A stretch of 64,000 nt of DNA from Escherichia coli (GTDB taxonomy: Bacteria; Pseudomonadota; Gammaproteobacteria; Enterobacterales; Enterobacteriaceae). The stretch lies in assembly GCF_017348835.2 (NCBI RefSeq), contig NZ_CP071375.1. One strand, written 5' to 3'. Both the position numbers and the translations under genes were made by a program. Shown piece after piece: positions 53,217 through 56,796 of the stretch (its first letter is position 1; each line of letters starts with the position of its first letter). The notes under the pieces were generated by a model, which made no database searches, was not told the origin of the DNA, and saw only the letters and a program-made list of their open reading frames with translations.

Positions 53217-55199
53217 TTACCATTGATAACTCACGAAAATTTTTCCGTTACGACCATCCTGTGGGATGCCTTGCGGCGACCAGTACTCTTTGTCGAAAGC
53301 GTTACCCAACACCAAAGTAGTGGTCATACCTTTGAGCGCCTGTTGTCCTTGATAACTGACGTAGAAATCATTCACGCCATAGCCTGGTTGTTTGCTGTAA
53401 CTGCTGCTGATATGTGTTGAGCGATCGGCAAACGTACCAACCCACCCAACAGAGAAGCCACTGTGAGCGATCGGAATATTCAGGGTGCTGGTAACGGTAT
53501 CCGGGTTAATGCTGGAGATGTATTCGCCGGTATCGGTGTCTTTGCCGCGGGTACGGTTATAGGCCACATCAAGGCTAAACAGATCAGTGGTATATTTCGT
53601 CATCACATCCCAGCCCCAGATTTTGGCGTTCGGGACGTTATACGACATAGTCGTCGCCGCCGCGAAATCGACGGTCGTGGAGATGTAATCCTTCGCTTTG
53701 GTATCAAAGTAGCTGGCTTTAAATTCCAGAGCATCATTGGACAACATCAGGTCATCAAAACGCAGCCCAAAACCGTACTCCTGAGTTTCGTTAGTTTCCG
53801 GACGTAAGTTCGGGTTTGACACCCAATAGTTGGTATAGAAGCGACCAATCGAGAAGTGCTTAGAATCGTTATACATTTCGCCCATCGTCGGGGCGCGGAA
53901 TGCCTGGGCATATGAGCCAAATAACATCAGCCAGTTAGTCGGATTGATAGTCATCCCCGCACGAGATGACCATTTGTCGGCATCAACATCTTTGTAACCG
54001 TCACTGCTACCGCGATAACTGTCATAGCGGGTTCCGCCAAGCAGGGTAATCGGCAGATCGCGTAAGGTGATCTCATCCTGTAGCCAGCCGGAGCTAAAAT
54101 CGATTTTTGCTTGCGGGAAGCCCGTCGTCGCGCCGCCCGGATGTTGTTCCTGACGATAATACTCACCGCCATATGTCAGTAAGTGAGAAGCGAAACTGTC
54201 GGCAAAGAGAGTGGAACGGTTCTCCAGCCTGGCTCCTTTTGTTATCTGTTCACGATACTCGCCGGAACTCCCCGTGTTTTGCGCATTAATACGGACTTCC
54301 GACCAATAAATTTTTGCATCTGCATTTAACCAGTCGTTGCCCTGCGGGGCGAGTTTATAAGAAAGCTGCGCATCGCGTTGAATTGTTGAACGATCAACCA
54401 TCGGGTTGCTGCTTTCAGAAGCCTCAACGGTCTGCGGATTTTTTGGTTCACGCGCGTCGTTGTTGTAGTAACGCACTAAACCGCTCAGAGACTGGGCTGA
54501 ATCAATTTGCCAGGTCCCTTTCGCCAGCATGTTATTAATGGACTCGTCATTCGGCGCGGTTTCACCATTGCTCTGGCGTAAATCACCCCGATCGCGACTG
54601 GACCAGGCCACAATACCATCCAGATTTTCAGTTCGCCCAAACGCGCTCGCGCCTAATCCCAGGCTATGGTCCCCCGTGCCGCCAGTACCAAAGACACGAA
54701 AACCACTGCTTTGTCCTTCCTGCAATAAATCTTTTGCATCGACCGTATCGTAGGAGATCACTCCACCCAGCGCGCCACTGCCATACAGTAATGCTGAAGG
54801 TCCGCGAACAATCTCAACACGCTTGATCAGCGCCGGATCGAGAAAAGTGCCATTCAGGTGTCCGGTATCCGTTCCCTGGCGAACACCATCGATAAGAACC
54901 AGCACGCCGCGATGATCATAGCCACGCATATTTACATCCTGACCGTTGGTTCGTCCGGTACCATCCAGAGTAATTCCAGGAACATGACGCAGCAGATCGG
55001 TGGCTGAAGTAGCCGTTTGATTTTCAGGAGCGGAAGTGTCGATGACGCTGACCATCATAGGCGCTTCGAAGGAACTACGGGCATTCCCCGTTGCCGTAAC
55101 GGTCATGGTTTCAGTAGCAAAAGCAAACGTTGGCAAGGTGGCAGAAACAGCCAAGGCCAATAAACTCAAACGCAACGAGGTAAATTGCGGACGTGACAT
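53217..55199 (-). CDS. chuA: TonB-dependent outer membrane haem receptor ChuA, 660 aa
   Basis: 660-aa ORF with signal peptide, TonB-box region ETMTVTA, FRAP and NPNL haem-receptor motifs, C-terminal aromatic residue. Confidence 0.95.
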   Translation of the reverse strand: MSRPQFTSLRLSLLALAVSATLPTFAFATETMTVTATGNARSSFEAPMMVSVIDTSAPENQTATSATDLLRHVPGITLDGTGRTNGQDVNMRGYDHRGVLVLIDGVRQGTDTGHLNGTFLDPALIKRVEIVRGPSALLYGSGALGGVISYDTVDAKDLLQEGQSSGFRVFGTGGTGDHSLGLGASAFGRTENLDGIVAWSSRDRGDLRQSNGETAPNDESINNMLAKGTWQIDSAQSLSGLVRYYNNDAREPKNPQTVEASESSNPMVDRSTIQRDAQLSYKLAPQGNDWLNADAKIYWSEVRINAQNTGSSGEYREQITKGARLENRSTLFADSFASHLLTYGGEYYRQEQHPGGATTGFPQAKIDFSSGWLQDEITLRDLPITLLGGTRYDSYRGSSDGYKDVDADKWSSRAGMTINPTNWLMLFGSYAQAFRAPTMGEMYNDSKHFSIGRFYTNYWVSNPNLRPETNETQEYGFGLRFDDLMLSNDALEFKASYFDTKAKDYISTTVDFAAATTMSYNVPNAKIWGWDVMTKYTTDLFSLDVAYNRTRGKDTDTGEYISSINPDTVTSTLNIPIAHSGFSVGWVGTFADRSTHISSSYSKQPGYGVNDFYVSYQGQQALKGMTTTLVLGNAFDKEYWSPQGIPQDGRNGKIFVSYQW

Positions 55200-55260
55200 A
55201 GCGATTCTCCATGAGGAAAATAAAAAATGCTGGCTGCCTGGGTTAATACCGGGGTGGCTG
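55200..55260 (-). promoter_or_regulatory. chuA 5' leader containing a FourU-type element next to the Shine-Dalgarno (candidate RNA thermometer)
   Basis: Minus strand reads CATTTTTTATTTTCCTCATGGAGAATCGC-ATG: U-run upstream of GGAGA SD; a temperature-sensing leader is remembered for shuA/chuA. Confidence 0.4.
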
Positions 55261-55488
55261 GCGAAAAATAAATTTATTTAAAATTCAGAGCGATAATATT
55301 CGCCGGGTGAGTTTACAGGCGTTTATATCCCATGAAATTGCCTGATAACTCGGCAATTACGCAAAAGCACGCCCTCTTTGTCAGGCAAAACGATATGCCC
55401 CATCAGGAGTGAAGAGAGCTGTGCGTTATCCCTTGCAAATGCTATGGTTTTGTTATCCATATGGTCGTGTTTTGTTAAATGCAAACGT

Positions 55489-55507
55489 GATAATGAGAAT
55501 TATTATC
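55489..55507. promoter_or_regulatory. Fur box in the chuA-chuT divergent region
   Basis: GATAATGAGAATTATTATC, 17/19 match to GATAATGATAATCATTATC. Confidence 0.7.
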
Positions 55508-55836: not shown

Positions 55837-55855
55837 AATGATAATCATGATCATT
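55837..55855. promoter_or_regulatory. Second Fur box immediately upstream of chuT
   Basis: AATGATAATCATGATCATT contains the TGATAATCAT Fur core; lies inside the N-terminally extended chuT ORF, arguing for the downstream start. Confidence 0.6.
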
Positions 55856-55881
55856 CTCAATTTGATAAGAGTTCTCATATT

Positions 55882-56796
55882 ATGCCAAGGATCATCACCA
55901 GGCCGTTTCTTTTTTCCCCACTGACGTTATGTATTTCAGCCGTGGCCTCTGCCGCGAAGAGCACGGTAAAACGAAAAAAATTGTTTACGGCAGTACTGGC
56001 TCTTAGCTGGGCTTTTAGCGTAACGGCTGCCGAACGTATCGTGGTCGCAGGAGGATCGCTGACGGAGCTAATCTACGCGATGGGCGCTGGCGAACGCGTG
56101 GTTGGTGTCGATGAAACGACATCTTATCCACCAGAAACCGCCAAACTGCCGCATATTGGCTACTGGAAACAACTCAGCAGCGAAGGCATTTTGTCACTTC
56201 GCCCGGATAGCGTAATTACCTGGCAGGATGCTGGACCGCAAATTGTGCTCGACCAACTACGGGCGCAGAAAGTCAACGTCGTTACCCTGCCGCGTGTGCC
56301 TGCCACCCTTGAGCAGATGTACGCCAACATTCGCCAACTGGCAAAAACGTTACAGGTTCCTGAACAAGGGGACGCGCTGGTGATACAGATCAACCAACGC
56401 CTGGAGCGAGTACAGCAAAACGTGGCAGCCAAAAAAGCCCCGGTTAAAGCCATGTTTATTCTCTCCGCAGGCGGAAGTGCGCCACAAGTTGCCGGTAAAG
56501 GCAGCGTCGCGGACGCCATTCTTTCGCTTGCCGGAGCAGAAAACGTCGCTACCCACCAGCAGTACAAAAGCTACAGTGCAGAATCACTGATTGCGGCTAA
56601 CCCTGAAGTGATTGTCATAACCTCACAAATGGTCGATGGCGATATTAATCGGCTACGTTCTATTGCTGGAATTACCCACACTGCCGCATGGAAAAACCAG
56701 CGCATTATCACCGTTGATCAAAACCTGATTCTGGGAATGGGTCCGCGTATTGCTGATGTCGTTGAGTCTTTACACCAGCAGCTTTGGCCGCAATAA
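55882..56796 (+). CDS. chuT: Periplasmic haem-binding protein ChuT; start uncertain (304 aa from 55882, 330 aa from 55804)
   Basis: ORF track 55804..56796; signal peptide-like KKLFTAVLALSWAFSVTAA; Fur box at 55837-55855 favours the ATG at 55882. Confidence 0.8.
   Translation: MPRIITRPFLFSPLTLCISAVASAAKSTVKRKKLFTAVLALSWAFSVTAAERIVVAGGSLTELIYAMGAGERVVGVDETTSYPPETAKLPHIGYWKQLSSEGILSLRPDSVITWQDAGPQIVLDQLRAQKVNVVTLPRVPATLEQMYANIRQLAKTLQVPEQGDALVIQINQRLERVQQNVAAKKAPVKAMFILSAGGSAPQVAGKGSVADAILSLAGAENVATHQQYKSYSAESLIAANPEVIVITSQMVDGDINRLRSIAGITHTAAWKNQRIITVDQNLILGMGPRIADVVESLHQQLWPQ

Follow-up and report, generated by a model that had tools for sequence, protein, structure and literature searches.

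The leader of Escherichia coli chuA: a known FourU RNA thermometer beside a conserved interrupted hairpin and a candidate back-up helix

FourU RNA thermometers include those of Salmonella agsA, Yersinia lcrF/virF, and Vibrio toxT. For the heme receptor gene shuA, with the agsA thermometer as the positive control, ShuA was found to be made at 37 °C and poorly at 25 °C with unchanged mRNA, i.e., the control is post-transcriptional (Kouse et al. 2013, PMC3660397). According to the same study, the 32 nt from -29 to +3 suffice for thermoregulation in E. coli DH5alpha; expression at 37 °C drops with the U-19C substitution, which creates a C-G pair, and expression at 25 °C rises with C-17A. The same behaviour is seen for the leader of UPEC chuA, with lower expression for U-19C and higher for U-19A, and the hairpin point mutants leave the mRNA level unchanged. 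The length of the shuA 5'UTR is given there as 278-342 nt. As for chuA of EHEC Sakai, its transcription start was mapped by differential RNA-seq, yielding a 5'UTR of 291 nt, and the U273A mutation raises chuA-gfp 2.6-fold at 25 °C (Sy & Tree 2022, PMC9002310). The same authors report Rho-dependent 3' ends in this leader at +129, +271, and +297, and a segment (+177 to +217) that represses chuA 9-fold and is required for Rho sensitivity. They also report that the sRNA CyaR activates EHEC chuA, by 1.3x in the wild type and 1.6x in U273A; its mechanism "remains unclear" and an "additional repressive element" must exist, in their words. Another element described for heme-receptor leaders is the HmuP-responsive element (HPRE), a repeated GCCAGC(C) motif; published work reports HmuP/HemP-dependent receptor expression via the HPRE for E. 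meliloti alone, and for C. violaceum it is an inference.

The sequence analysed here (the window) is a stretch of 64,000 nt from E. coli contig NZ_CP071375.1, in which chuA and its leader have the following parts:

53217-55199, minus strand: chuA coding sequence, 660-aa TonB-dependent heme receptor (open reading frame and translation)
55200-55490, minus strand: chuA 5' untranslated leader, 291 nt (length from differential RNA-seq in EHEC Sakai)
55489-55507, minus strand: Fur box GATAATAATTCTCATTATC, overlapping the chuA promoter (2-3 mismatches to the 19-nt Fur consensus)
55197-55228, minus strand: shuA/chuA FourU RNA thermometer, -29 to AUG, AUUUUUUAUUUUCCUCAUGGAGAAUCGCUAUG (Rfam RF02597)
55204-55221, minus strand: proximal SD-occluding hairpin, 7 bp, formed by AUUUUCC (55221-55215), loop UCAU (55214-55211), and GGAGAAU (55210-55204) (minimum-free-energy fold, pair probabilities, published mutants)
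55206-55210, minus strand: Shine-Dalgarno (SD) sequence GGAGA, 6 nt upstream of the AUG at 55199-55197 (read from the sequence)

The name chuA is taken from the annotation of genomes that are 100% identical over the region, and the neighbours are those of the chu locus, with chuS downstream and chuT-chuW-chuX-chuY-chuU-ATPase divergent. Since U273 of the literature corresponds to window position 55218, within the four-U run, and the UTR has 291 nt, +1 is placed at about 55490. The Fur box lies 290-308 nt upstream of the chuA AUG and is one of only 2 matches to the Fur consensus in the 64 kb (the chuA and chuT boxes), with 0.01 expected by chance. A promoter scan also reports a sigma-70-like site over this box (-35 TTGATC at 55527-55522, -10 AATAAT at 55504-55499), the -10 element of which fits a start at about 55490. 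The earlier note on this DNA, made from its letters only, had put the nearest Fur box about 290 bp upstream of chuA and expected a long leader. The box is indeed found at that distance, and the long leader agrees with the published 291-nt UTR and is correct also because the Fur box and the overlapping promoter-like site fit the mapped start.

Several observations concern the neighbourhood of this promoter. The second Fur box (55840-55858) is located 24-42 nt upstream of the divergent chuT/shuT start (chuT ATG at 55882, plus strand), and the layout on this side agrees with that published for shuT: transcription start 42 nt upstream, Fur site within the UTR, and a non-FourU thermometer of its own. 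A match to Hammerhead_HH9 (Rfam) at 55935-56010 on the plus strand, inside chuT, was rejected: it has 24 bits versus a threshold of 52 (E = 0.015), and it is most likely due to chance because the CUGAUGA core is disrupted (C-GAAGAG). In E. coli WP4-S17-ESBL-03 an IS26 transposase gene stands in place of the Fur box, the chuA promoter, and ~85 nt at the 5' end of the leader, and expression of chuA in this strain may be Fur-independent.

According to cmscan, the RF02597 (shuA_thermo) match covers positions 1-32 of 32 with 60.1 bits at a gathering score of 58 (E = 6.4e-8 over 6 kb), and every base of 55197-55228 equals the family consensus. The proximal hairpin spans -22 to -5 relative to the AUG; UUUU at 55220-55217 pairs with AGAA of GGAGAA through 3 A-U pairs and 1 G.U pair, and CC pairs with GG. 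The element is identical in sequence to the experimentally tested alleles (S. dysenteriae shuA, UPEC chuA, and EHEC chuA), and the effects of the published mutations at -19 and -17 are those expected from this hairpin. The U-run upstream of chuA is thus almost certainly the published and experimentally proven shuA/chuA FourU thermometer, i.e., an already known element. The earlier note had proposed that the U-rich stretch could pair with the GGAGA SD, which both the RF02597 match and the fold confirm, and that the SD would be occluded at low temperature, which is established by the published reporters at 25 versus 37 °C and by the point mutants. Its reference to such a description for the shuA/chuA leader was accurate (RF02597; Kouse et al. 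2013, PMC3660397). Two details need correction. The leader sequence that it quoted is present, except that a U was dropped between CGC and AUG (...AAUCGC-AUG) and the strand, minus, was missing. Its range of 55200-55260 does contain most of the thermometer, the true limits of which are 55197-55228, and the remainder covers a separate conserved element at 55229-55262.

The minimum-free-energy fold of the 32-mer is .......(((((((....)))))))....... at 20, 25, 30, 37, and 42 °C, with dG equal to -9.4, -8.4, -7.4, -6.1, and -5.1 kcal/mol, respectively. When the entire 291-nt leader is modelled together with 45-100 nt of coding sequence, the pair probability of the proximal hairpin is 0.92-0.98. Folding of the leader at both 25 and 37 °C, the check suggested along with the thermometer proposal, predicts a stable SD-occluding helix at either temperature. 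Comparison of the 32-mer with dinucleotide shuffles gives z = -2.83 and an equally good fold in 5 of 200; these statistics, taken alone, are suggestive but not compelling. To open the SD, the model requires 9.5-10.3 kcal/mol at 25 °C and 7.4-7.7 kcal/mol at 37 °C, i.e., ~2-2.5 kcal/mol less. The nearest-neighbour model keeps the hairpin folded throughout 25-37 °C, with a two-state Tm of ~65-70 °C and P(SD unpaired) <=0.005, and the thermal response would appear to be a graded "zipper" and not a switch. The thermodynamic model overestimates mutant effects more than 10-fold in comparison with published values: for U273A, it predicts a 17-57-fold change versus the observed 2.6-fold.

The proposed order of events starts with the Fur-repressed promoter, which would give rise to a chuA mRNA with the 291-nt leader. 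In its last 29 nt, AUUUUCC (four U plus CC) would pair with GGAGAAU, forming a 7-bp hairpin rich in A-U and G.U pairs that hides the ribosome-binding site. At 25 °C the hairpin is more stable and little translation occurs; at 37 °C it would open more often, in a zipper-like manner, and ChuA is made. Since Fur control and the thermometer combine, ChuA would be produced only at low iron and host temperature. The thermometer is textbook-level knowledge for this locus and, together with Fur, limits heme-receptor synthesis to the iron-poor host at 37 °C.

Within E. coli, the chuA leader is present in 2236 of 5426 complete genomes and falls into two allele groups, one with >=95% identity to the window (1006 genomes) and one with ~87% (1230 genomes). 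The divergence between them (~13%) is limited to the upstream two-thirds, and the alignment shows no variation in the last ~85 nt. Of the 2235 chuA-positive complete genomes, 2194 carry the 67 nt at 55197-55263 with 100% identity.

The upstream part of the leader has features of its own. An upstream open reading frame of 45 codons (MDNKTIAFARDNAQ...) lies at 55323-55460 on the minus strand; it starts at +31 and lacks an obvious Shine-Dalgarno sequence. In the UPEC-type allele the same ATG is present, but with a frameshifted ORF of 53 codons; the peptide is probably not conserved, given that most differences between the alleles are non-synonymous. Two hairpins that resemble terminators and have U-rich tails are located at 55370-55387 and 55289-55304, both on the minus strand. 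The former (+104 to +121, tail to +131) lies in an island that does not vary among leader alleles, and its position matches the Term-seq 3' end published at +129; the latter (+187 to +202) falls within the +177 to +217 segment.

Comparison with other genera is based on a scan of one genome per species, which yielded 80 loci encoding ChuA relatives with 57-98% identity from ~20 enterobacterial genera. Intact hemP (Pfam PF10636; ending in ...GKLILTK-stop) is found in all 74 non-Escherichia orthologous loci, with a distance from the end of hemP to the receptor start of 66-127 nt in most loci and ~200-293 nt in five Buttiauxella loci. It is absent from all 5 Escherichia orthologous loci, and no hemP-like DNA is detected at blastn sensitivity in the 5426 complete E. 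coli genomes. Both the Fur box (-316 in Citrobacter, -319 in E. coli) and the ATGGATAAC start (-255 and -262, respectively) sit at collinear distances, and the E. coli chuA leader therefore occupies the hemP slot. This positional equivalence of the 291-nt leader (55200-55490, minus strand) and hemP is solid: where all the other genera sampled have hemP, E. coli has the unusually long chuA leader.

Sequence descent of the leader from hemP, however, is not demonstrated. The idea of a decayed hemP was rejected: the upstream ORF (MDNKTIAF...) looks HemP-like by eye, but scanning every Escherichia leader allele in all frames with the HemP profile HMM gives no match. The best match of a hemP DNA profile in the window does fall inside the leader at the collinear position, but has E = 0.28, and blastn reports only the Fur box and a 15-nt match at ATGGATAAC. 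Among the best 120 matches listed in a HemP homolog search only close enterobacterial relatives appear, and this search thus did not widen the taxon sampling. An ERIC-type repeat was also considered for the leader and dismissed, the window having none. ERIC-like repeats (RF02818 V_AS5, 44.5 and 31.2 bits, below threshold) are seen at 949-1073 of locus L005 and 982-1102 of locus L040, their sites being the chuA leader of Escherichia sp. MOD1-EC7003 and the interval between hemP and the receptor gene in some Buttiauxella.

The conserved element directly 5' of the thermometer is the following:

55229-55262, minus strand: HPRE-like interrupted hairpin, with block 1 GCCAGCCACCCCGG (55262-55249), loop UAUUAA (55248-55243), and block 2 CCCAGGCAGCCAGC (55242-55229) (conservation and RNAalifold)

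It consists of eight G-C pairs arranged as four 2-bp steps between tandem C.A/A.C mismatches (one C.C in E. coli), with the layout GC.CA.GC.CA.CC.CC.GG - UAUUAA - CC.CA.GG.CA.GC.CA.GC. The element is present in 79 of 79 ortholog loci, where the blocks follow the pattern GCCAGCCACCCAGG, 3-13 variable nt, CCCAGGCAGCCAGC. Mean pairwise identity of the blocks is 96-97%, versus 54% at synonymous third positions and 92% at first and second codon positions of the adjacent hemP tail. RNAalifold reports the consensus ((..((..((..((-loop-))..))..))..)), and folding as a stepped hairpin accounts for the mirror order of the two blocks. Among the 13 block haplotypes, all substitutions fall at mismatch positions except for one compensated G-C to A-U change; in E. 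albertii, one A.C is turned into G.U. Predicted stability is -5.5 to -9.4 kcal/mol, no better than that of shuffles. The defining HPRE feature, a repeated GCCAGC(C) motif in a heme-receptor 5'UTR, is found as GCCAGCC...CAGCCAGC at 55262-55229 on the minus strand; the accompanying hemP/hmuP in the same locus or genome is not found in E. coli, which makes the element an orphan in the window. A strongly constrained RNA motif, little studied in enterics, thus lies between the hemP slot and the thermometer, and E. coli keeps it without HemP. If a hairpin with periodic A.C mismatches binds HemP-family proteins, it would offer a structural handle on regulators for which action on DNA or on RNA is under dispute.

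Scanning metagenomes for the HemP C-terminus gave 89 distant HemP loci. The regions downstream of hemP in 85 of them contain GCCAGC 109 times on the mRNA strand versus 16 on the opposite strand; in 32 loci, two copies are separated by 12-90 nt. Of these 32, 19 have a minimum-free-energy fold that pairs the outer G-C steps round an inner stem-loop, the inner stem of which differs completely in sequence and length between lineages. Judged from sequence comparison, these loci would represent stem-level covariation in favour of the hairpin.

As for pairing between the U-tract and the SD, a U/C-rich tract complementary to GGAG is kept in every ortholog, and GGAG itself is invariant in 66 of 66 distinct ortholog sequences. 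In E. coli this tract offers a second partner for the SD:

55220-55231, minus strand: distal helix 5' arm AGCAUUUUUUAU, holding the first U-run (55227-55222) and pairing with AUGGAGAAU-C-GCU at 55212-55200 (minimum-free-energy fold and alignment; putative function)

Most genera are predicted to use such a distal arm, AGC(G/A)CUUUUC paired with GGAGAG-UUGCU; in Buttiauxella and Escherichia, the proximal arm in the Rfam register is used or competes. Buttiauxella, whose hemP is intact and which forms an 8-bp hairpin in this register (AAAUUUUC/GGAGAUUU), led to rejection of the idea that the FourU hairpin is an Escherichia innovation after hemP loss. Because that hairpin coexists with hemP and most genera pair CUUUUC with GGAGAG, U-tract/SD pairing is ancestral. 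In the alignment, 87% of cells are paired for the proximal helix versus 37-72% in slid controls, with one position occurring as U.G, C-G, A-U, and U-A. Covariation does not discriminate between the proximal and distal registers, since the SD side is invariant; the proximal hairpin is supported in E. coli and Shigella because the published point mutants lie only in its arm. The full-length wild-type model gives P = 0.94-0.96 for the proximal hairpin and <=0.03 for the distal helix.

A distant HemP locus with low GC content, on metagenome contig L197, reads AGCCAGC-GAUUUUUUGUUUUUAUCACUGGAGA-N9-AUG downstream of hemP, a layout as in E. coli, in the order of stepped-hairpin 3' arm, two U-runs, and GGAGA Shine-Dalgarno sequence. 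U-run/SD pairing beside an HPRE may be widespread.

Other roles can be assigned to the U-rich stretch. It might serve mainly as a binding platform for proteins or sRNAs (Hfq, ribosomal protein S1, RyhB/Esr41), with an incidental hairpin. Hfq-CRAC peaks are reported at the ribosome-binding site, where RyhB and Esr41 act (Sy & Tree 2022, PMC9002310). In general, AU-rich leaders are typical S1/Hfq sites. The ability of the 32-nt element by itself to confer thermoregulation in E. coli DH5alpha, however, makes this reading very improbable, as do the hairpin-designed single mutations, which shift expression in opposite directions as predicted (U to C pairs, C to A unpairs) at constant mRNA. Alternatively, the U-runs could be mainly the U-tract of a weak intrinsic terminator or attenuator, with termination at about +271 and secondary effects of temperature and sRNAs. 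The interrupted stem at 55262-55229 on the minus strand (-7 kcal/mol) is followed by AUUUUUUAUUUU, and the published Term-seq 3' end at +271 falls within AUUUUUUAUUUU, 9 nt past the end of the hairpin (+262). A U-run also follows the 3' motif in several distant HemP loci, and the published hemP mutants of C. violaceum lose receptor mRNA although no internal promoter exists. On the other hand, the site is called neither by a simple terminator scan nor, according to Sy & Tree 2022 (PMC9002310), by ARNold; the hairpin is no more stable than shuffles; and a strong U-run is present in only 9 of 32 distant loci, which is also why HPRE hairpin plus U-run was rejected as a general terminator. Moreover, neither temperature (25 versus 37 °C) nor the mutations alter the mRNA level (Kouse et al. 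2013, PMC3660397), and the +271 end is bicyclomycin-sensitive, i.e., Rho-dependent (Sy & Tree 2022, PMC9002310). Termination as the main role of the U-runs is therefore unlikely.

A different proposal complements the thermometer and does not replace it: the distal helix would be a back-up SD occluder and, at the same time, the repressive element of Sy & Tree that CyaR relieves. This identification, which can be put forward only tentatively and with less than even prospects, is suggested because CyaR pairs with the 5' arm of the helix:

55223-55242, minus strand: predicted CyaR pairing site CCCAGGCAGCCAGCAUUUUU, +249 to +268 of the leader (best short duplex)

CyaR, whose identity was verified with RF00112 (100.7 bits), forms its best short duplex between its nt 19-40 and CCCAGGCAGCCAGCAUUUUU (-18.1 kcal/mol), as computed on 22-nt target windows; full-length RNAduplex gave unrealistic duplexes of 80 nt. 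The site agrees with the published position "about 15 nt upstream of the SD" (Sy & Tree 2022, PMC9002310) and covers one arm of each structure, the 3' arm in the stepped hairpin and the 5' arm in the distal helix. Masking it in the model raises SD accessibility 1.2-1.7x in the wild type and more in U273A, which agrees with the observed CyaR activation in direction and rank order, but not in magnitude, the predicted values being far above the observed ones. Further points in favour of a back-up helix are that it is the minimum-free-energy fold of -45 to +12 at <=37 °C, that its homologue is the predicted fold in most other genera, and that 89% of cells in alignment A2 are paired versus 43-57% in slid controls. 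At the outer U-run/SD pair (25-56), 45 sequences have C-G, 6 have U-A, and 1 has A-U, the C-G to U-A change being compensatory; this covariation, however, is weak and phylogenetically clustered. Modelling of U273A puts the distal helix in place of the proximal hairpin (P = 0.86 and 0.67 at 25 and 37 °C, respectively), which would explain the mere 2.6-fold derepression as well as the persisting and slightly stronger activation by CyaR, left without a mechanism by Sy & Tree 2022 (PMC9002310). Against it stands the low wild-type probability given above, and the effect in the wild type may instead come from a GCAU:AUGU clamp (P = 0.28-0.45). The distal helix nevertheless represents a cheaply testable structural candidate for how CyaR activates chuA, the question posed by Sy & Tree 2022.

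The thermometer was known before; the hemP slot, the stepped hairpin, and the back-up helix are added here, all computationally, and are leads, not established facts. Taken jointly, they could be read as one larger ancestral leader element with the thermometer as its 3' module. An HPRE-type hairpin, near-invariant in enterobacterial heme-receptor leaders, would have become an orphan in Escherichia/Shigella after hemP loss, and its 3' arm plus the first U-run would form a back-up SD-occluding helix relieved by CyaR, which would explain why CyaR activation survives FourU disruption. As a whole, this reading is rather doubtful.

Among known systems, the HPRE (Amarelle et al. 2019, Biometals 32:273), as described in citing papers, has in common with 55229-55262 the GCCAGC(C) repeats and the location in the leader of a TonB-dependent heme-receptor gene, shortly before the start. 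The C. violaceum chuR HPRE CCCGCAAGCCAGCCGACAGCCAGCCAGCG, the sole HPRE sequence compared (as quoted in PMC9131926), shares GCCAGCC and CAGCCAGCG with the block and can be parsed as the same stepped hairpin. In a citing paper, the HPRE is reported as a direct repeat "absent in gammaproteobacteria", whereas here it is seen in 79 enterobacterial loci and read as an interrupted hairpin. In other enterics, the HPRE-like block is located just downstream of hemP; E. coli keeps the block without detectable hemP. The shuT/chuT thermometer (Wei et al. 2017, PMC5458455) is the second one in the same divergent intergenic region and is also combined with Fur, but it belongs to the other strand and another gene, is non-FourU, and has a 42-nt UTR that encloses the Fur site. 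With the agsA-type FourU, the chuA element has in common four U that pair with the SD (A-U plus G.U), a short, gradually opening stem, and translational control. It differs in having no sequence homology and a hairpin of only 7 bp with a 4-nt loop, which ends a 291-nt multi-input leader where a second U-run can pair with the same SD. The RF02597 model itself has a narrow range: its threshold is reached by Escherichia loci alone (60.1 bits), with 28-31 bits for the orthologs of Pseudocitrobacter and Citrobacter and no detection in other genera. The closest system is the shuA/chuA 5'UTR thermoregulator (RF02597; Kouse et al. 2013, PLoS One 8:e63781), with which the element in the window shares the identical 32 nt, hairpin, gene, and position, and from which the element itself differs in nothing.
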